From: a virus
Taxonomy: Duplodnaviria > Heunggongvirae > Uroviricota > Caudoviricetes
Length of the DNA: 15,296 nt
Strand: one strand, 5' to 3'
Virus record (IMG/VR): IMGVR_UViG_2713896777_000009
The translations under genes were made by a program, and so were the position numbers. Under the pieces are notes generated by a model. It saw only the letters and a program-made list of their open reading frames with translations, did not search any database and was not told where the DNA came from. Positions 4,017-15,296 of the stretch are shown piece by piece (the stretch's first letter is position 1; every line of letters starts with the position of its first letter).

Positions 4017-4471
4017 TACGCCTCCTGCTTGTCGCGCAGCAGCTGGAACTCGCAGCTCTGCGGAATAGTCAGGTGGCAGCCAATATTCATCGCCCAGGCT
4101 TCAACCTTACACAGGAAGACATACATCTCTCCGGTATCAAGATCGGAGGTATGGCGTAACGACTGGATAGTAGTGATTTCGCCGGTTACGACATCAACCA
4201 GGTCCTTGGTTTCATAACCGAGGTATGTGTGTTTGAGAGCATCTTTTACCCATGCTGCGGTAGCGAACGATTTCCCCCTGCGGATAAGGTATTCACTGAT
4301 TTCGCTGTACCACATGTGGCTAAGTGCATTCTGGGAAAGACTGCGTCTCTCGCGCCACGGTTTAAGCACCATGCGAAAGCACTTGCCGTCTTCCAAATAA
4401 GGCTGGAGCTGCTGACCGATAGCGGTGAAGTTACCGCGATGCAGTTTGATGCCGTCTTGTGGGAGGTTCAC
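4016..4471 (-). CDS. ybcN: NinB/Orf-family recombination protein (DLP12 YbcN-like), GTG start
   Basis: 151-aa [65 protein letters not shown]...; RBS GGAGGT 5 nt before GTG 4471. Confidence 0.8.
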
Positions 4472-4506
4472 GCTTCACCTCCGCAGAGGTCAAACGCTGG
4501 ATAAAG

Positions 4507-4692: not shown

Positions 4693-5094
4693 TTATTTTA
4701 ACTCATAGATCAGACAGTCAACGATTTCTAAACCATTTACCATAGAATTAGAAACGCGAACTTTACCATCGTTGACTCTAGCAAATCCTTTTAACATTTT
4801 ATAAACAAAAGCTGAATCCCCCTTAGCCTCAATTGCTTCTAATGGTATCGGCTTATACTTTTTTGATATGCTATTTCTATTTATCTCACTGATTTTTCTA
4901 TATATTTCTGCCGGCCCACGTTCTGAGAAGTCACTGATAACTAAAATATATCTCCAAGATAGATCTGGGTAATAAAACCACATTGCAGCATCAATAGTTA
5001 AATTCTGTAACTTGAGTTTTTTTAACAAAAATTGACCTGAGAATTCCATATCTTTTGTCAACTCTCTGCCGATTACCAGTGTGCTTTTACCCAT
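4693..5094 (-). CDS. Hypothetical protein (133 aa), downstream overlapping partner of the HEPN gene; no recognisable nucleotidyltransferase motif
   Basis: ORF MGKSTLVIGRELTKDMEFSGQFLLKKLKLQNL...; ATG 5094 with GGAG RBS 7 nt upstream, lying inside the last 22 nt of the HEPN gene in another frame. AT-rich, unlike flanking phage genes. Confidence 0.6.
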   Translation of the reverse strand: MGKSTLVIGRELTKDMEFSGQFLLKKLKLQNLTIDAAMWFYYPDLSWRYILVISDFSERGPAEIYRKISEINRNSISKKYKPIPLEAIEAKGDSAFVYKMLKGFARVNDGKVRVSNSMVNGLEIVDCLIYELK

Positions 5095-5489
5095 TTCAAA
5101 ACTCCAGAATTTTGGTCACCTACAGCATCAAACAATTGTTCGGCCATAGCTTTACTTATGTTATTGTCGTATCTAAATTGCTCGCTCCAGTCTTTAACGA
5201 CCGACCAGTTAATCTCCAACGAAACATCATTTTTTGCGTCAGCAATCAAAATTTGATGTAAGTTGGCAATTTTGAGAAGTTGCGACAAATCATGAGTATA
5301 TGAATCATTTACGACTTTTTTGTTTGGAAACTCATGTTGTAAAAATGACTTGGCAATACAGGCCTTCAATGCACATTCAACTGCATACCCACAAAGATAA
5401 TATGCACCATGAAAAAAGCCATGATCAAGCAAGCATTTGGCCTCATTAAGCCTAGTGTCAGATAATGCTTCAAGGTCGTTTTTATTCAT
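5073..5489 (-). CDS. HEPN-domain protein (138 aa; Pfam HEPN PF05168-like fold, without a clear Rx4-6H motif)
   Basis: Translation ...HGFFHGAYYLCGYAVECALKACIAK...YTHDLSQLLKIANL...EQFRYDNN... has HEPN-like helices, an H-D-L motif and an RY motif. Candidate sigma70 promoter upstream on the minus strand (-10 TATAAT 5523..5528, -35 TTCCTA 5547..5552). Confidence 0.62.
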   Translation of the reverse strand: MNKNDLEALSDTRLNEAKCLLDHGFFHGAYYLCGYAVECALKACIAKSFLQHEFPNKKVVNDSYTHDLSQLLKIANLHQILIADAKNDVSLEINWSVVKDWSEQFRYDNNISKAMAEQLFDAVGDQNSGVLKWVKAHW

Positions 5490-5788: not shown

Positions 5789-6397
5789 TTACAGCCGTTC
5801 AGAACGTAAATGCGTCAATACTCGACTCCACTTATCATCCTGCCACGGCCGGAATTTTACATGTGCCGTTTCTCTGGCAAGGATTGCCTGTGCCTTATTG
5901 AGTATCCGGGGATATTCTTGTTCGATTGAAGTGAAGCGACCGGCTTCGCGGTGTTCTGCTACCTGAAGAAGCGGAGTGACGTTTTGGCAAGCGGTTAACA
6001 TTGTGTCACTTGCCCGCCATAACCAAGCAAGTGTGCAAAGTTCGTTATCAGTGAATTGTTTTGTGATTGGGGATTGTTGAATTTCTCGATCGAGAATATC
6101 CAGCACCCAGCGGCGGAATTCTTTGGCCACAGGAGTGCGGGCGAACATGGCGATCAGATGGGCGCCACGGAGGGAGAAAATGCGAGTCTTCTTACGATAA
6201 TTTCCTGAGGTCGTTGATTCGACGACCTGAGACATTCCGTCAGTAAACTCATCAATATTTTTGTTGTAGATGTCGGTTACTGCTTTGGTGCTGGCATATT
6301 TTAATGCTGCCGCCAATTCTTTGCTGGTAAACCAGATCTGGTTGTTGTGATTTATAGGAGTGAATTTTACATCGCGGAATGCGAGCTGAGTGACCAT
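5789..6397 (-). CDS. Bro-N domain protein (phage antirepressor/KilA-type N-terminal domain) with an uncharacterised C-terminal domain; start uncertain (ATG 6397 or 6532)
   Basis: Translation from MVTQLAFRDVKFTPINHNNQIWFTSKELAAALKY...RIFSLRGAHLIAMFARTPVAKEFRRWVLDIL matches the Bro-N pattern. The ORF-track start 6634 is TTG and spans a minus-strand terminator, so the long form was rejected. Confidence 0.68.
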   Translation of the reverse strand: MVTQLAFRDVKFTPINHNNQIWFTSKELAAALKYASTKAVTDIYNKNIDEFTDGMSQVVESTTSGNYRKKTRIFSLRGAHLIAMFARTPVAKEFRRWVLDILDREIQQSPITKQFTDNELCTLAWLWRASDTMLTACQNVTPLLQVAEHREAGRFTSIEQEYPRILNKAQAILARETAHVKFRPWQDDKWSRVLTHLRSERL

Positions 6398-6560
6398 AGC
6401 GATAATCTCGTTTTGAATTTGAGCTATCACCACCGACGACGCCAATCGACTGGTGGTGGACTGTGCAAGGTTGGCGTAACCGGTCAAAACGAAATCCGGC
6501 GCTTCCGAAGAAGCCCTCACACAGCCCACCATAATTTTTGTGTAGACGTGCACTGCGCAT

Positions 6561-6586
6561 AAAAAAACCGCGAACGCGGTTATGCG
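6561..6586 (-). terminator. Intrinsic terminator on the minus strand (stem ACCGCG/CGCGGT followed by U7)
   Basis: Plus strand aaaaaaACCGCGaaCGCGGTtatgcg; on the minus strand the hairpin is followed by TTTTTTT. Confidence 0.5.
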
Positions 6587-6828
6587 TCGTTTTGATGTCC
6601 GGGACGCCAATCCCGTGTGCCGATTTTGCGGCAACGCACAGAATATAGCGCCGGATAAATAATGTCGTCAACCCTTGCATATGGGGGGCGCGATGATCAC
6701 TACTACCACCATAATCGCTCCAACTGTTGCAACTACTTTAGGCTAAGACATCACGATTTCCATATCACCTTTAGCCGCCAGACAAACAGAGACTCCCTGT
6801 TCTTGGCTGCCAAAAACACCGAATGCAA

Positions 6829-7149: not shown

Positions 7150-7497
7150 ATGACTATCAAAGCGACTGACATAGAGATTCTTCATCGTTATGCTGAAGGG
7201 GTAATGGAACGTTCTAACCATCATGCAAAAAATGTTGGTGCAGCCGCTCTTACATTGCTAGGAGGTGTTATCTGGAAAGCCCTGCCCGGATCAATCGAGA
7301 TAAGAACGTATAACGGAAGTCTTGCAAATATGGTGTGGTGGCAAAGCGAAAGAACATTAAAAAATTATGCAATCTCATACAACCATAATTCATGTGAAAT
7401 TGAAATGAGAGATGAATCAGTCAAAGGTGCTGTATTATTTAGCATTTCCAACGAAACCACTCCAGAAAAAATATTATCACAGCTTTCTGAGCTTTAA
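7150..7497 (+). CDS. Hypothetical protein (115 aa), opposite strand to the early-right operon, between P and the nin region; moron-like
   Basis: ORF MTIKATDIEILHRYAEGVMERSNHHAKNVGAAALTLLGGVIWKALPG...; preceded by 230 bp of AT-rich sequence and followed by a GC hairpin at 7502..7519. No family recognised. Confidence 0.55.
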   Translation: MTIKATDIEILHRYAEGVMERSNHHAKNVGAAALTLLGGVIWKALPGSIEIRTYNGSLANMVWWQSERTLKNYAISYNHNSCEIEMRDESVKGAVLFSISNETTPEKILSQLSEL

Positions 7498-7501
7498 TTA
7501 A

Positions 7502-7519
7502 AGGCGGTGCTAACACCGC
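7502..7519. terminator. Hairpin GGCGGTG-ctaa-CACCGCC between the convergent 115-aa gene and P; U-tract on the minus strand
   Basis: Inverted repeat read directly; on the minus strand it is followed by TTTAATTAAAG. Confidence 0.45.
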
Positions 7520-7701: not shown

Positions 7702-8403
7702 TCATACACTTGCTCCTTTCAGCCCAAACTTAGCTTTGATTTCTGCGATCTTCGCCAGAGCCTGTGCACGATTTAGAGGTCTACCGCCCATAACAGGAAG
7801 TTGTTTTACTGGTTCAGGTATCGTCTCACCACGGTTAATTCGCGCTGTCATACAGGTCAGTTCATCGGCAGCCTTGCGCCGTAATTCCGCGTCAGTCAGC
7901 GCATTGGCCCGCATGTTCTGGTACAGGTTGGTAACCAACCAGTAATGCGCGTTCGATTTCCACGGATAAGACTCTGCATCCGGATACAGGCCACGCTTCC
8001 GGCAATACTCGTAAACCATATCAACCAGCTCGCTGACGTTTGGCAGCCCGGCGTTAACGGATGCTTCTTCCCGGCACCATGCAACAAACTGCCCGGGTGA
8101 TGGCAGAAATGGTCTATTCTGCCGACGGGCAACACGCATTCCGGCGCTCACCTGTTCCATCGTGGTGATCCCGTTTTCCCGGAAAGCCAGAACCCACTGG
8201 CGGCGGATTTCGTTCAGTTCGTTCTGGTCACGATTAGCCAGGCTCGCCGGGAAAGTTGCCAGTAACTGGCTGAATACACCGTTGATTATCTGCGCTACCT
8301 GCTGTACCTGCGGCTTTTCGTCGTACTGTTCCGGCATGTTGTTGGCGATCCGACGCATCTGCTCACGGTCAAAGTTAATCATCTGTGCGGCGATGTTTTT
8401 CAT
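7702..8403 (-). CDS. P: Replication protein P (lambda P-like helicase loader, 233 aa)
   Basis: Translation MKNIAAQMINFDREQMRRIANNMPEQYDEKPQVQQVAQIINGVFSQLLATFPASLANRDQNE...AKIAEIKAKFGLKGASV is near-identical to lambda P as I recall it. ATG 8403 overlaps the O stop (ATGA). Confidence 0.93.
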   Translation of the reverse strand: MKNIAAQMINFDREQMRRIANNMPEQYDEKPQVQQVAQIINGVFSQLLATFPASLANRDQNELNEIRRQWVLAFRENGITTMEQVSAGMRVARRQNRPFLPSPGQFVAWCREEASVNAGLPNVSELVDMVYEYCRKRGLYPDAESYPWKSNAHYWLVTNLYQNMRANALTDAELRRKAADELTCMTARINRGETIPEPVKQLPVMGGRPLNRAQALAKIAEIKAKFGLKGASV

Positions 8404-9413
8404 AGATCCACCCCGTAAATCCAGTCTGTGTTTGTCAGGTCGAGTTTTGGTTTGCCGACTGTCACGCCAGCCTGTTGCTTGTTCCGGTTGATTTCGAGCT
8501 GGGTCCACTTGTCGCGGAGTTTGGCCGGACTCAGCACGTTACCGGACNNNNNNNNNNNNNNNNNNNNNNNNNNNNNNNNNNNNNNNNNNNNNNNNNNGCG
8601 GAGTTTGGCCGGACTCAGCACGTTACCGGACCAGAAGTTGTCCTGGCAGGCCCAGCGGAACAGTACACACATGTCGCGGTGGTTACGTCCATCACGTTCA
8701 CGCATCAGACGGATATCGTTAGCCCACCCTGCAAAATTCGGTTTTCTGGCTGATGGCGCGATGGTCTTCACCATGTCAAACATCCACTCTGCGGCGGTCA
8801 GGTCTTCTGCTGTCCCCCACTTGCTGCCGCTCTGAATCGCAGCATCCGCTTTCACCACAGGAAGGTCGTTTTCTGGCAGGTCAGAGGATTCGCCAGAATT
8901 CTCGGACGAATAAGGTTTTATATTGTCTTTTGTTAGTTTGTCTTTTGTGTTTACCTGATTCGGGTAAGTGCCTTTACCTGATTTGGGTAAACTTTTCTTA
9001 CCTGATTCAGGTAAATTTACCTCTTTCAGGTAAACTTTATTTTTCTTACCTGATTCGGGTAATGTTGACCATTCACTGACCACATTATTAATGCCGATAT
9101 TCCGCCCGCTCTGAATAAAAATCCCACGCTTTACCAGAACACTTTTTGCAGCAGAACACTTGTGCGGCAATATCCCGGTCAACTCGGAAAGTTGCTCGTT
9201 GCTCACCCAGTCCAGTTTTTTATTAAAGCCATATGTTTTGCGCATGACAGCCAGGAAGACCAGAAGCTGGTGCTGTGTTAATCCGGCCAGCATTACAGCT
9301 TCCAGCAACTCATTTGCAATGCGCGTATAACCATCATCGAGATCTGCCACGCGCGGCTCCTTTTGTGCCGCATCCGGCACTGGAAAATTGAATATCTCAG
9401 CAGTGTTTGCCAT
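8400..9413 (-). CDS. O: Replication initiator O (lambda O family); N-terminal origin-binding domain differs from lambda, C-terminal P-interaction domain is lambda-like; interrupted by the 8548..8597 gap
   Basis: Translation MANTAEIFNFPVP...VADLDDGY...TYPNQVNTKDKLTKDNIKPYSSENSGESSD...FWSGNVLSPAKLRDKWTQLEINRNKQQAGV...DLTNTDWIYGVDL; ATG 9413 with GGAGG RBS. Iterons lie inside the gene. Confidence 0.9.
   Translation of the reverse strand: MANTAEIFNFPVPDAAQKEPRVADLDDGYTRIANELLEAVMLAGLTQHQLLVFLAVMRKTYGFNKKLDWVSNEQLSELTGILPHKCSAAKSVLVKRGIFIQSGRNIGINNVVSEWSTLPESGKKNKVYLKEVNLPESGKKSLPKSGKGTYPNQVNTKDKLTKDNIKPYSSENSGESSDLPENDLPVVKADAAIQSGSKWGTAEDLTAAEWMFDMVKTIAPSARKPNFAGWANDIRLMRERDGRNHRDMCVLFRWACQDNFWSGNVLSPAKLRXXXXXXXXXXXXXXXXXSGNVLSPAKLRDKWTQLEINRNKQQAGVTVGKPKLDLTNTDWIYGVDL
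8548..8597. other. Assembly/scaffold gap (50 N) flanked by an identical 34-bp sequence on both sides
   Basis: gcggagtttggccggactcagcacgttaccggac occurs at 8514..8547 and again at 8598..8631, indicating overlapping contig ends joined with N. Confidence 0.9.
8896..9064. promoter_or_regulatory. Replication origin within O: five iteron-like palindromic repeats (TTACCTGATTCGGGTAA core) adjacent to an AT-rich stretch
   Basis: Repeats at about 8950, 8974, 8998, 9017 and 9046, each about 19 bp with TTACC...GGTAA symmetry; AT-rich tract 8896..8949 lies on the gene-downstream side, as in lambda ori. Confidence 0.8.
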
Positions 9414-10039: not shown

Positions 10040-10085
10040 AATTGACTCCTTTAGTTTGAATTGACTGTTAAGTTGATTGCTTATT

Positions 10086-10097
10086 GTTAAAGAGCGT
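10086..10097 (-). promoter_or_regulatory. boxA-like element (CGCTCTTTAACA) in the cro-distal intergenic region; no adjacent boxB hairpin
   Basis: Minus-strand sequence matches the boxA consensus CGCTCTT(T)A; no GC stem-loop follows it. Confidence 0.3.
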
Positions 10098-10339: not shown

Positions 10340-10443
10340 AACAACCTCCGTGGTTAATTTGAATCAAGATTAAAACTATGGTTGTTTTTAGTCAACAACC
10401 ATTTTCGTTTGATGGAATAAAACCTTGGTTGTACATTTGGACT
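10340..10443. promoter_or_regulatory. Immunity-region right operator/promoter region (OR with divergent pR and pRM)
   Basis: pR on the minus strand: -35 TTGACT (10390..10395), 17-bp spacer, -10 TTAATC (10368..10373). pRM on the plus strand: -35 TTGATG (10409..10414), 17-bp spacer, -10 TACATT (10432..10437), 6 nt before the cI ATG. Repeated half-sites AACAACC/GGTTGTT, including the palindrome ATGGTTGTT-N7-AACAACCAT. Confidence 0.6.
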
Positions 10444-11133
10444 ATGAAAACAACACTCTCAGAAAGACTTAAAGAAGCCAGATTAGCGCGAGGCCTTACA
10501 CAAAAGGCGCTTGGGGATTTGGTCGGGGTTAGCCAGGCTGCTATTCAGAAAATCGAAACAGGGAAAGCTAATCAAACAACTAAAATCGTGGAGATCGCGA
10601 ACGCTTTGGGTGTGCGCGCAGAATGGTTATCTTCTGGCGTTGGAAATATGTCAGACAGTACAGTGCAACCAATACAATCAACTGTCAGCCATTCCAAATA
10701 CTTCAAGATTGACGTTCTTGATATAGAAGTCAGTGCTGGGCCGGGAGTCATCAACCGTGAGTTTGTAGAAGTTCTACGCTCGGTTGAGTACTCGTTTGAC
10801 GATGCTCGTCACATGTTCGATGGTAGGAAGGCAGAAAATATCCGCATCATTAACGTGCGTGGTGACAGCATGTCAGGAACGATCGAACCAGGTGATCTGC
10901 TGTTCGTTGATATCACGGTTAAATCTTTCGACGGTGATGGTATCTATGCATTTCTGTACGACGACACCGCCCATGTAAAGCGCCTGCAAATGATGAAGGA
11001 TAAACTGCTGGTTATCTCTGATAACAAGAGCTACTCACCGTGGGACCCTATCGAGAAAGACGAGATGAACCGGGTATTCATATTCGGTAAGGTTATTGGG
11101 AGCATGCCGCAGACGTACAGAAAACACGGATAA
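10444..11133 (+). CDS. cI: CI-type prophage repressor (HTH_XRE N-terminal domain, LexA-like S24 autopeptidase C-terminal domain)
   Basis: Translation MKTTLSERLKEARLARGLTQKALGDLVGVSQAAIQKIETGK..., Ala-Gly cleavage site (EVSAGPG), catalytic GDSM serine and downstream VKRL lysine. Near-leaderless start as for lambda pRM-cI. Confidence 0.9.
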   Translation: MKTTLSERLKEARLARGLTQKALGDLVGVSQAAIQKIETGKANQTTKIVEIANALGVRAEWLSSGVGNMSDSTVQPIQSTVSHSKYFKIDVLDIEVSAGPGVINREFVEVLRSVEYSFDDARHMFDGRKAENIRIINVRGDSMSGTIEPGDLLFVDITVKSFDGDGIYAFLYDDTAHVKRLQMMKDKLLVISDNKSYSPWDPIEKDEMNRVFIFGKVIGSMPQTYRKHG

Positions 11134-11214: not shown

Positions 11215-11478
11215 ATGAGTAATAAAACACTTGTTAAAAAATCAAATAACTGTGTCGATGCATACGCCGACGCGTTTGGCTACTCTTCGTTTGGTGACGG
11301 CTCTCAGCGCCTAGGTTCAATTTCTTTTTTTCATAATGTAACTGAATGGCCTGTTGATGAAAGTGACGATGTTGAGAACATAAAGTACAACATTGCAACC
11401 ATTAGAATGCCCGAAGAATTGATGCTTAAATTGGCTGACTTCATTCGCGACCAGCATGACAAAGCTAAAACAAACTAA
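11215..11478 (+). CDS. Hypothetical acidic protein (87 aa) immediately downstream of cI (rex position)
   Basis: ORF MSNKTLVKKSNNCVDAYADAFGYSSFGDGSQRLGS...; RBS GGAAAGG before the ATG; AT-rich relative to cI. No family recognised. Confidence 0.55.
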   Translation: MSNKTLVKKSNNCVDAYADAFGYSSFGDGSQRLGSISFFHNVTEWPVDESDDVENIKYNIATIRMPEELMLKLADFIRDQHDKAKTN

Positions 11479-11490
11479 TCGTAATTAATT

Positions 11491-11934
11491 ATGAAACACG
11501 ATTATTACGAAGCTCCAAACCTAAATGATAAAATTGCAAAGGCGGCAGAATCATTTTGTTTGCACTCCAGTGCGTCTTCCCAGCTAGCAGGTATATCTGG
11601 AAAAAGATGGGACATGCTACAATCAAGTGGTAGCAGTGGGTCTGGGAGTGATAACATGCCTGAAAAAGTTGCAAAACTGGAGTCCGATGTTGCTCATATC
11701 AAACGAGACGTTGATGAACTTAAAACAGACGTTAAAGCTATCGACAAAAATATGATAACTATTCTTGCACGTCTGGACTCTATAAAAGAATCCTTAACAA
11801 ACAAGCCATCAAGTGATGCTGTCGATAGAAAGATTTCAGACGCAAAGCTTGCGGTATTGCTTGGTGTTCCAGCAATCATCGCTGCAGGAACAGGACTTTA
11901 TAAGCTATCAATGTACTTTTTCTTTAGTGCTTAA
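11491..11934 (+). CDS. Hypothetical protein with Gly/Ser linker, coiled-coil segment and C-terminal transmembrane helix (147 aa; alternative start at 11656 gives a 92-aa XhlA-like membrane protein)
   Basis: ORF ...SSGSSGSGSDNMPEKVAKLESDVAHIKRDVDELKTDVKAIDKNMITILARLDSIKESL...LAVLLGVPAIIAAGTGLY...; the ATG at 11656 has a GGGAG RBS while the ATG at 11491 has none obvious. Confidence 0.55.
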   Translation: MKHDYYEAPNLNDKIAKAAESFCLHSSASSQLAGISGKRWDMLQSSGSSGSGSDNMPEKVAKLESDVAHIKRDVDELKTDVKAIDKNMITILARLDSIKESLTNKPSSDAVDRKISDAKLAVLLGVPAIIAAGTGLYKLSMYFFFSA

Positions 11935-12011
11935 GAAAATGCTCGCACCCTTGCATTAGGTAAAGCGATTTTTCATTCCCCATTACCCTCGCTCTTAACC
12001 AATCATCTAAA

Positions 12012-12039
12012 CCCGGCCACCGTGCCGGGTTTTCTTTTG
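12012..12039 (+). terminator. Rho-independent terminator ending the cI/rex-position operon (CCCGGC-caccgt-GCCGGG followed by TTTTCTTTT)
   Basis: GC-rich stem-loop followed by a T-tract on the plus strand; a boxA-like CGCTCTTAA lies about 20 nt upstream at 11990. Confidence 0.7.
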
Positions 12040-12164
12040 CCCTCCCCTCATCATACACCGTTCAAAAAAACCACCACGACCTCGCTTCAGTTATCGCTAT
12101 GCGATGCAAGTCACAAAATAAATCCATCTTAAATACAACCAGTTATATCTAAAACAACCAACAA

Positions 12165-12207
12165 AACAACTTTTGTTGTTGACGATAAAACAACTATAGT
12201 TTTAAAT
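12165..12207 (+). promoter_or_regulatory. pL-like early-left promoter with overlapping operator (OL)
   Basis: TTGACG-ataaaacaactatagtt-TTAAAT is nearly identical in architecture to pR (TTGACT-aaaaacaaccatagttt-TAATC). Palindrome AACAAC-TTTT-GTTGTT overlaps the -35, and further AACAACC half-sites lie upstream at 12150..12170. Confidence 0.5.
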
Positions 12208-12212
12208 GAGTT

Positions 12213-12301
12213 CATCGCAACAACACAACGATACGGCAATCACCTGATTCACCGTTGCGATGACCGCTTAGATCCGCAGCTTGAATTTCAGCAGGCTTCG
12301 G
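12213..12301 (+). ncRNA. Two stem-loops in the pL leader (possible put-like cis-acting antitermination RNA, or a nut remnant); speculative
   Basis: Stem I: CATCGCAAC (12213..12221) pairs perfectly with GTTGCGATG (12254..12262). Stem II: CCGCAGCUUG (12274..12283), loop aauuucag, CAGGCUUCGG (12292..12301), 9 of 10 pairs. No N-like ORF lies between pL and kil/gam. Confidence 0.25.
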
Positions 12302-12484
12302 GGAGTGCGAGGGATGAAACGGACGCGTGAACGTCGGTGTGACCAGCTGAAATCAACTCAACATTTCATACCTTAGTCGCTTCAACGAGGCGGCTTAGTT
12401 ATGACAACCGGCGGCCATCCACCGCCTGAATACGCGCAGAAGTCTTTATATGTTCAGCAGCCCAGCTTACGGGCAGGAGTTTTT

Positions 12485-12691
12485 ATGGTTCATCAACATT
12501 ACGGAACGCAGACCGTTAATCGCGGTGCGGTCATGCCAGGAATGCTGGTCAAACGCAAAGATGGTACCTGGACTGCATCAGCTAATTTACGCGGACGACT
12601 TTATCTGCATCGCGGCATTGAGCGCACTTATACCCGTGACTTGCTCGTGGAAGTTTTTCTCGACGGACGCGGCAACGCTCTGAATCACTAA
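12485..12691 (+). CDS. Kil-like small protein (68 aa; possible KilR-family host cell-division inhibitor) upstream of gam
   Basis: ATG 12485 preceded by GGAG; translation MVHQHYGTQTVNRGAVMPGMLVKRKDGTWTASANLRGRLYLHRGIERTYTRDLLVEVFLDGRGNALNH. Family assignment is from recalled similarity only. The upstream 28 codons of the ORF-track ORF lack an RBS. Confidence 0.4.
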   Translation: MVHQHYGTQTVNRGAVMPGMLVKRKDGTWTASANLRGRLYLHRGIERTYTRDLLVEVFLDGRGNALNH

Positions 12692-12766
12692 TCCCCTTTC
12701 CTGTTTTCCGAATCAGCCTGGCATTCCGCGGGCGATTTTTTCACAGCCATTTTCAGGAGTTCAGCC

Positions 12767-15166: not shown

Positions 15167-15296
15167 ACATGAAAAGCAAAATCATCAGGGAGCTACAGGC
15201 TCCTTTTTTATTGTTCGCATTCACCCTCAAGCGTATTAACCAACAATTCAGGGATTAATGGAAGATGGCAGACATCATTGATTCAGCATCAGAAAT

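Follow-up and report, generated by a model that had tools for sequence, protein, structure and literature searches.

An N-less pL leader with no evident nearby terminator carries a covarying RNA cassette upstream of kil in a common lambdoid prophage lineage

In the usual account of lambdoid development, the N protein, or in HK022 the put RNA, is needed for RNA polymerase to pass the early terminators. Lambdoid phages that lack N are already known. For one of them, phage LLS, a put-like RNA has been conjectured (PMC12315714), and in the Rac prophage the toxic kilR gene is silenced by Rho/NusG (PMC5793797) and its 5′ untranslated region (UTR) yields a small RNA (sRNA), KilS (PMC8175672). Here we describe the early-left region of an N-less element contained in a 15,296-nucleotide (nt) stretch of Caudoviricetes DNA (IMG/VR record IMGVR_UViG_2713896777_000009; the whole stretch is called the window below), and in particular the leader between its pL promoter and kil, within positions 12040–12484. 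An earlier reading, made from the sequence alone, had seen two strong stem-loops standing here in place of N and had proposed either that N was lost from a cryptic prophage or that early antitermination is N-independent, for example through a cis-acting put-like RNA. Put to the test on this leader, the put-like guess failed. The picture that we lean toward, with somewhat more confidence than doubt, is that of an N-independent leader without a strong terminator before exo, carrying a cis-regulatory cassette for the first downstream gene.

Gene content and scans against PHROGs identify the window as a lambdoid prophage's early region. Over the 251 nt from 12150 to 12400, which take in pL and the greater part of the leader, the sequence is 100% identical to that of a prophage in Escherichia coli E2865 that is inserted at the tRNA-Arg adjoining fimZ/sfm, which is the DLP12 site, and that has DLP12-type genes in its RefSeq annotation (quuD, rusA, ybcN/O, essD, rrrD, and a porin). 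The source element belongs to the DLP12/Bievrevirus-type lambdoid prophage lineage. Its leader occurs in 2211 of 5426 complete E. coli genomes (about 40%) and, by blastn against a phage collection, in at least 16 sequenced phage genomes at 87%–96% identity; phages with the N-less layout include 4A7/Bievrevirus, the PhiR series, IdasGreatGrand, and Perceval.

The boundaries of the leader are set by pL on one side and kil on the other, both on the + strand. The oL operators and pL occupy 12160–12207, with a −35 element TTGACG (12179–12184), a 17-bp spacer, and a −10 element TTAAAT (12202–12207) lying among operator-like direct repeats (12163–12177 and 12187–12201) that recur inverted at pR (10370–10410); the earlier placement of pL at about 12179–12207 is thus borne out. 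Since the similarity between the window and relatives of other immunity types begins at 12214/12215, the transcript most likely starts at A12214. The first gene of the operon is kil (12485–12691; 68 residues), a member of the FtsZ-inhibitor family (PHROG 294, E = 3e-37; NCBIfam "FtsZ inhibitor protein"), followed by gam, bet, and exo. Its start codon is ATG 12485, where both the NCBIfam and the PHROG matches begin and just upstream of which one relative is frameshifted, and its variable sites at codon positions 1, 2, and 3 number 0, 3, and 18. A 96-residue extension of Kil from ATG 12401 was rejected on the strength of the frameshift in PhiR30_1 and of family matches that begin at residue 29. 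From the start at 12214 and the kil ATG at 12485 follows a leader of 271 nt, in good agreement with the approximately 280 nt of noncoding sequence reported before between pL and a kil-like open reading frame (ORF).

Neither N nor a nut pair accompanies this leader. About 30 ORFs of the window compared with PHROGs included no N family member, the RefSeq annotation of this prophage type, in the strain with the 100% identical 12150–12400 segment, is likewise without N, and in the complete genome of phage 4A7 a Q-like gene is present and N was not found; the three sources agree with the earlier claim that the window encodes neither N nor Nun. Loss of N from a cryptic prophage does not account for this, because a layout common to at least 16 phage genomes and to the 2211 E. 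coli genomes is not the decay of one cryptic prophage. Early-left expression must be N-independent, as one branch of the sequence-only reading had it, and it is the put-like RNA suggested as its means that falls away, as there is neither a put match nor a second copy of the element (see below).

Compared with the lambda N/nutL-nutR system, the locus has the same map position (pL, leader, first early-left gene), a similar leader length, and a boxA in the pR transcript after cro, but there is no N-family protein with an arginine-rich motif, no boxB hairpin, no boxA in the pL leader, no boxA plus boxB in both early transcripts, and no tL1-type terminator. The post-cro boxA, which had been noticed before as a boxA-like motif without boxB, is an exact rrn-type boxA on the minus strand between cro and cII (10084–10095, GCTCTTTAACAA; listed as 10084–10097, CGCUCUUUAACAA), and indeed no boxB hairpin follows it. 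It matches the consensus boxA of Nus-factor antitermination (GCUCUUUAACAA) but, unlike the rrn system, is confined to the pR side, has no counterpart in the pL leader, and lacks conservation among relatives of the lineage. It occurs only together with this cro allele, in 19 of 81 relatives, the others having a 30-nt cro-cII gap, and none of the 87 leaders examined contains a boxA. Because it is tied to one cro allele, the post-cro boxA is not a lineage-wide substitute for N. A lambda-type boxA (CGCTCTTAA) also lies at 11989–11997 on the + strand, 13 nt upstream of the immunity-operon terminator hairpin; it belongs to the 3′ end of the cI-operon transcript, outside the pL transcript, and is probably coincidental.

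The leader has a mosaic build: three segments can be told apart, and the joints fall at 12214, 12248, and about 12364. Segment i (12214–12247) contains the likely +1 position, the 5′ arm of a first predicted stem-loop (stem I), and a CA-rich loop (CAACAACACAAC, 12218–12229). Many E. coli matches start at 12214/12215, an O157-type variant replaces 12214–12247 with other sequence, and, at 0.74 variable sites per nt, no other part of the leader varies as much; the pL transcripts of HK639, HK225, and phi80 open with a similar CATCGAAACGAAACATCGA. Segment ii (12248–12363; about 115 nt) holds a second predicted stem-loop (stem II) and is lineage-specific: blastn against the phage collection found no homologue outside the lineage, and its anchors, searched against species-representative genomes (one per species), gave 12 matches, all at chance level and in unrelated phyla. 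Its density of variable sites is 0.17 per nt. The corresponding slot in related phages is filled by a gene plus an intrinsic terminator (in phi80, a gene annotated N plus tL1). Segment iii (12364–12484) is the cassette described below.

The window differs from its nearest described counterparts in lacking the terminator of this slot. The leaders of phi80, HK225, and HK639 share with it the first approximately 20 nt (CATCG.AAC.A.ACA.CGA) and the whole cassette, at 60–86 bits with our cassette covariance model (R2), but in those phages a long leader (containing boxA or, in HK639, put) is followed by a hypervariable gene and then by a terminator before the cassette, where the window has 115 nt of unrelated noncoding sequence. 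In phi80, HK225, KO-TP1, ENT1, and HK639 the cassette starts directly after the intrinsic terminator (..GCGGGTTTTTT|CATACC), and the same arrangement was found in at least 120 viral contigs; since these were retrieved with a pattern that required a TTTTTCATACC T run, they show its prevalence and not its generality. The window instead reads ..CAACATTT|CATACC, the terminator having been replaced, and together with its 86 relatives it follows the form ..CAACA(T/C)(T/C)T|CATACC, with no hairpin or T tract directly upstream of the cassette. With both the upstream gene and its terminator missing, an antiterminator RNA would have no terminator nearby to overcome.

Farther downstream, we found no strong + strand terminator between 12214 and 15187. 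A weak hairpin with a T run lies in the kil-gam spacer (12716–12740; 5-bp stem), but it is unlikely to terminate transcription efficiently; only a minority allele has the T6 run, and GATATTTTC stands in its place in most relatives. The first convincing terminator of the pL operon, an 8-bp stem followed by TTTTTATTGTT, is at 15187–15205, about 3 kb from pL; it follows the recombination genes and, in the matching prophage, is itself followed by TraR-like, DUF4222, xis, and int genes. With no terminator predicted in the leader and none that is strong for about 3 kb, polymerase from pL should therefore be able to reach kil-gam-bet-exo without an antiterminator. The lineage is one without N protein, nut pair, or put.

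As a separate observation on the slot that segment ii occupies, the gene preceding the terminator and cassette in the 120 contigs is hypervariable, falling into more than 40 unrelated protein groups, and the phi80 "N gene" type accounts for only five of the 120. Conserved noncoding sequence flanks this gene: upstream stands a leader whose end reads ...CCCGCATCAGCGGGTAACGACAGAGGGTAAGG, and downstream come the terminator and the cassette. The first-gene slot of phi80-type early-left operons looks like a gene-exchange hot spot, perhaps for early anti-defense genes.

Segment iii, of about 120 nt, is a conserved structured cassette upstream of kil that is common to phi80, HK225, Klebsiella KO-TP1, Enterobacter ENT1, and at least 120 IMG/VR contigs. 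Model R2 finds it at 86.4 bits at 12367–12428, as the sole copy in the window, and at 70 bits in HK639, which was outside the training set. The window copy has the CAUACC opening, a covarying hairpin A, GUUAUGACAACCGGCGGCCAUCCACCGCC, GCGCAGAAGUCUU, a hairpin C, and the next gene's Shine-Dalgarno sequence. It is the least variable part of the region, with 0.093 variable sites per nt versus 0.26 at kil third codon positions, and 0.019 per nt if only sites with a minor allele count of at least two are considered. Neither the cassette nor the rest of the leader matches any Rfam family, DicF included, at E values up to 10; the cassette is unnamed.

Covariation in an alignment of 44 diverse copies establishes the cassette as a real RNA structure. 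Hairpin A (12367–12403) pairs 12375–12383 with 12387–12395 and is closed by an invariant helix between 12367–12370 plus 12372 and 12398 plus 12400–12403 (CAUA.C/G.UAUG), which buries the AUG at 12401. Its pairing is kept through at least five unrelated stem sequences; six pairs have two-sided changes, which amount to 131 compensatory cells. The cells of hairpin A are paired in 98.7% of cases, compared with 31%–46% in slid controls, and its covariation score of 0.392 compares with at most 0.053 in controls (0 of 500 shuffles reach the observed value). Next comes a 5-bp GC hairpin (12410–12426; GGCGG-CCAUCCA-CCGCC), within a near-invariant block (UUAUGACAACCGGCGGCCAUCCACCGCC) and itself invariant in the 44 sequences except for two wobble changes. 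It is followed by a motif conserved across cassette variants (GCGCAGAAGUCUU, 12434–12446), whose conservation is at the nucleotide level, since it falls in different frames of the upstream ORF, and by hairpin C (12460–12474; GCCC-AGCUUAC-GGGC), just 5′ of the kil Shine-Dalgarno sequence GGAG, with GC-to-CG compensatory changes at two of the three modeled pairs. The gene after the cassette varies, being kil in the window and other genes elsewhere, and the cassette always lies directly before the ribosome-binding site of that gene.

The GC hairpin is annotated in the HK639 GenBank record as a terminator or part of one (HK639 4188–4216). As a general attenuator or terminator we rejected it; because a T run follows the hairpin in only three to six of 118 variants, the HK639 annotation probably does not hold generally. 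A weak R2 match (16.5 bits, E = 0.014) was also seen in HK022 (4445–4488, minus strand), beside IS903 in the early-left operon, and may be a cassette remnant cut by the IS903 insertion.

The 5′ part of the leader gave a different result. Minimum-energy folding and the alifold consensus both predict stem I (12214–12261; 12214–12221 paired with 12254–12261 as a 5′-terminal helix) and stem II (12273–12302, with outer pairs 12265–12267/12307–12309), so that the two adjacent stem-loops of the sequence-only reading are present in the predicted fold; their supposed strength is not borne out, given a local fold z-score of only −2.1, with six of 200 shuffles folding equally well. For stem I, 98.3% of cells are paired and the changes are one-sided (wobble) only, none being compensatory; for both stems together, 99% are paired, with zero two-sided changes in 36 distinct relatives, and the shuffles equal the observed values in 500 of 500 cases. 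The alignment is too uniform and is matched by its shuffles, so stem conservation is uninformative, speaking neither for nor against stems I and II. It is suggestive that three very different 5′ arms (those of the window, the O157 type, and the Z142-3 type) all pair with the constant 3′ arm CCGUUGCGAU; the arms, however, share ancestry at the paired bases.

An HK022-type put RNA brings about terminator read-through in cis, an effect that mutations in the zinc-binding domain of the beta-prime subunit block. For a direct comparison with put, we rebuilt the family from phage records (HK022, HK639, phiEt88, CobraSix, UPF_BP1, and S9-5) and made a covariance model (R1) from the six putL RNAs, with a two-stem consensus of 19 pairs, six of them covarying. 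This model finds HK022 putR, which was outside the training set, at 36.3 bits (E = 6e-8), but finds nothing in 12040–12484 or downstream of cro, the best matches in the window having E > 2 and lying in coding DNA. A fuzzy search for the put core (GAACGGC...GUCGG / GGCGGG.UCAGGA.GA.CGGCAAU) was also negative. All putL RNAs have in common a −10-like NANNAT at +23 to +28 (PMC9378689); counting from the likely start, the corresponding 12236–12241 reads GCAATC, and neighboring registers fail as well. Compared by blastn with the remainder of the window, the leader gave only matches of 13–15 nt (E = 0.8–7, chance level), so the same two-stem element is not found downstream of pR; two motifs common to the leader and the post-cro region (CGCAGCTT[G/A]AATTTC and AATCAACT[C/T]AACA) are likewise at chance level. 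A second copy may not be obligatory for put RNAs, since HK639 has only a putL-like feature annotated in the examined stretch, which excludes the region downstream of its cro. The leader resembles the put RNAs of HK022 and the putL-like RNA of HK639 in opening the pL transcript of an N-less lambdoid phage as a cis element, in its two predicted adjacent stem-loops, and in a paired transcript 5′ end (stem I begins at the likely +1, 12214), but it differs in lacking an R1 match, NANNAT, a second copy after pR, covariation, and an adjacent terminator to overcome. HK639, moreover, has its put-like RNA apart from the conserved cassette, as a distinct element. By these tests, the leader does not belong to the put family.

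A new, nonhomologous put-like RNA could still be imagined, in which stems I and II bind the elongating polymerase in cis, replace N, and confer resistance to terminators including that at 15187 and to Rho-dependent sites. The putL-like position, with structure from +1 of the pL transcript of an N-less lambdoid element and two adjacent predicted stem-loops, is what such an RNA would have; three 5′ arms that differ strongly all preserve its first helix, variability in the leader is lower than at synonymous sites, and a real terminator stands 3 kb downstream, before xis/int. We nonetheless regard both this role and the terminator resistance it would bring as improbable. Besides the failure of R1 where putR was detected, the absent NANNAT, the lack of a partner element after pR or of covariation, and the modest local z-score, there are relatives that retain the terminator without having this segment, and the put-like RNA of HK639 is separate from the cassette and upstream of it. 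Alternatively, segments i and ii (12214–12363) might be a functionless recombination scar left where a nutL-N-tL1 or gene-plus-terminator cassette was replaced, so that only the cassette is functional. The sharp mosaic joints, the stems without covariation, and the want of homologues outside the lineage all fit a scar, as does an arginine-rich frame at 12314 that has no coding signature and carries TAG in 20 of 86 relatives and a frameshift in one. But the density of variable sites in segment ii (0.17 per nt) is below that of the kil-gam spacer (0.24) and of third codon positions (0.26–0.36), the segment recurs with little change in several immunity types and 40% of E. coli genomes, and none of 16 common polymorphisms breaks a predicted pair; we consider a pure scar unlikely.

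That same frame bears on whether the leader encodes a small protein. The arginine-rich pseudo-ORF at 12314–12376 (MKRTRERRCDQLKSTQHFIP, ending at a stop), which begins MKRTRERR, is not a gene, although KRTRERR resembles an arginine-rich motif. In 86 relatives, the frame has GTG and is open into kil in 62, has ATG and a TAG stop in 20, and is frameshifted in one; its variable sites number 9, 5, and 7 by codon position, as against 0, 3, and 18 in kil. We rejected it as a mini-N on these codon-position statistics, the stop and frameshift alleles, and the absence of a PHROG N-family match. The other candidate is an upstream ORF from AUG 12401 (MTTGGHPPP...), whose translation, with stalling at polyproline on the GC hairpin, would control expression downstream. 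This AUG and the first nine codons are almost invariant, the third Pro codon varies synonymously (CCC/CCA/CCT), and the PPP codons are the 3′ arm of the invariant hairpin. However, the ORF has no Shine-Dalgarno sequence, its AUG is paired in the invariant helix, its downstream part varies in frame and length among variants, and the third base that varies synonymously is positioned immediately outside the hairpin, which lets RNA structure account for the pattern equally well. With no protein-family match in addition, an N-like peptide from 12314 is very improbable, and so, to the same degree, is gating by the 12401 ORF. We give even less credence to a trans-acting role, in which the leader or a processed 5′ fragment would be an sRNA or sponge, for example by pairing of its CA-rich loop with the GcvB R1 seed in the manner of AgvB, a prophage anti-sRNA that uses the same CACAACA logic (PMC4104026). 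The loop (CAACAACACAAC, 12218–12229) is an exact 12-nt complement of GcvB nt 72–83 (R1) with G-U flanks, sits in the predicted stem I loop, and is kept in most relatives, and Rac provides a precedent in KilS. Yet an exact-complement count returned three other GcvB complements of 11–13 nt in coding DNA of the window, so the match is not statistically special; the motif is missing from the O157-type variant, pL is repressed in lysogens, no terminator in the leader closes a short RNA, and there is no Rfam match.

On the + strand of these 15 kb, the exact GcvB complements are at 8131–8143, 8831–8842, 7502–7512, and 12218–12229, the first three being antisense to O and P and in the hairpin after ORF 7150–7497; by our own calculation, about 0.4 matches of at least 12 nt are expected in the window. 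As known RNAs, we rejected AgvB itself, which sits at the PR′ moron site and not at pL; the Pas sRNAs, whose preprint makes no mention of kil or the early-left operon; and KilS (b4833) of Rac. The Rac kilR leader is alike in preceding a toxic FtsZ-inhibitor gene with a long untranslated region in an N-less lambdoid prophage (PMC8175672, PMC5793797), but on direct reading there is no sequence similarity, and model R2 finds nothing significant in Rac.

Around the leader, the window contains the rest of the early region. The + strand carries, in order, cI (10378–11133), two lysogeny-operon ORFs, a terminator (12009–12032), oL/pL, the leader, kil, gam, bet, exo, and small ORFs; the minus strand carries cro, a cII-like gene, O, P, an ant module, ninB, rusA, Q, and a holin gene. 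The terminator at 12009–12032, which ends the cI/immunity operon upstream of oL/pL, is intrinsic, with a 9-bp stem containing six GC pairs and a T tract, and has a weak isrJ-like Rfam match (21 bits, below threshold). Of the three intrinsic terminators proposed before in the right operon, that at 6561–6586 is the terminator of an Rfam isrK match and that at 876–900 is a good terminator at 878–899, but the third, at 7502–7519, is a 7-bp GC hairpin with a weak U tract.

Several neighboring loci are worth recording in their own right. The slot between cI and the immunity terminator (11215–11934, + strand), the position of rexAB in lambda, is filled differently from relative to relative: two unknown ORFs in the window (PHROGs 4231 and 3556), a SIR2-family protein in an O157 prophage, and an ASCH-domain protein plus a 353-residue ORF in phage 4A7. 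It is likely a defense slot expressed in lysogens. On the minus strand, 6449–6633 has Rfam matches to C4 antisense RNA (82.5 bits) and isrK (64 bits, including its terminator) just upstream of the gene for the Ant anti-repressor (ant-like ORF 5789–6634); C4, isrK, and ant make up an antirepressor control module of the P1/P7 type or the Gifsy-1 IsrK-AnrP type within the pR operon, and the module's terminators lie between P and Q. The nin region (4693–5489, minus strand) has adjacent ORFs of 133 and 138 residues, the second a HEPN-domain protein according to RefSeq, which may form a toxin-antitoxin or defense pair. A gene for a 360-residue porin (1327–2409, + strand; annotated OmpC, NmpC-like) is placed, as in DLP12, between Q and the lysis genes on the opposite strand.

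In the reading that we favor, polymerase from pL would transcribe kil-gam-bet-exo without an antiterminator, and the cassette would act in cis after transcription, setting the translation or stability of the first downstream gene. Such a role is suggested by the helix that buries AUG 12401, the invariant GC hairpin, and the position of hairpin C against the Shine-Dalgarno sequence; in the window, the cassette probably tunes the toxic kil, although this specific role is the weakest step of the overall picture. By analogy with Rac, the long untranslated leader could let Rho/NusG silence kil during leakage from pL, and the 5′-terminal stem I might protect the 5′ end of the mRNA. We hold it doubtful, though conceivable, that the cassette represents a new and widespread class of phage riboregulator, with stems I and II as a separate, nonhomologous analogue of put. 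The parts of such a riboregulator may be the AUG-hiding closing helix, the GGCGG/CCGCC hairpin with its 3′ arm encoding Pro-Pro-Pro, and the hairpin abutting the ribosome-binding site, and it may gate whichever gene comes after the first early-left terminator, for instance if translation or stalling of a nine-codon leader is coupled to Rho-dependent polarity or mRNA decay.

Several points weigh against the favored reading. The start at 12214, the lack of internal promoters, and the lack of termination within the leader are all predictions from sequence, and Rho dependence of the leader is drawn from analogy; C/G ratios along it point both ways (5′ end, 1.64; middle, 0.57), and the leader as a whole folds no more stably than shuffled sequence (z-score, −0.5). 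In other phages the genes that follow the cassette are unrelated, so that "control of kil" may describe its role too narrowly. Finally, the terminator at 15187 stands between pL and xis/int, and because it precedes them, some read-through mechanism may be needed for these late-early genes.

What appears new is the terminator-free architecture of a very common prophage type and a covarying cassette, absent from Rfam, that recurs across many lambdoid early-left operons. A prophage type present in about 40% of complete E. coli genomes, with neither N nor put, seems to manage without the first terminator, and for annotation this means that a missing N should not be taken as the sign of a defective prophage. 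The presence of an RNA cassette supported by covariation before a toxic inhibitor of cell division could, in turn, bear on how prophages silence kil.

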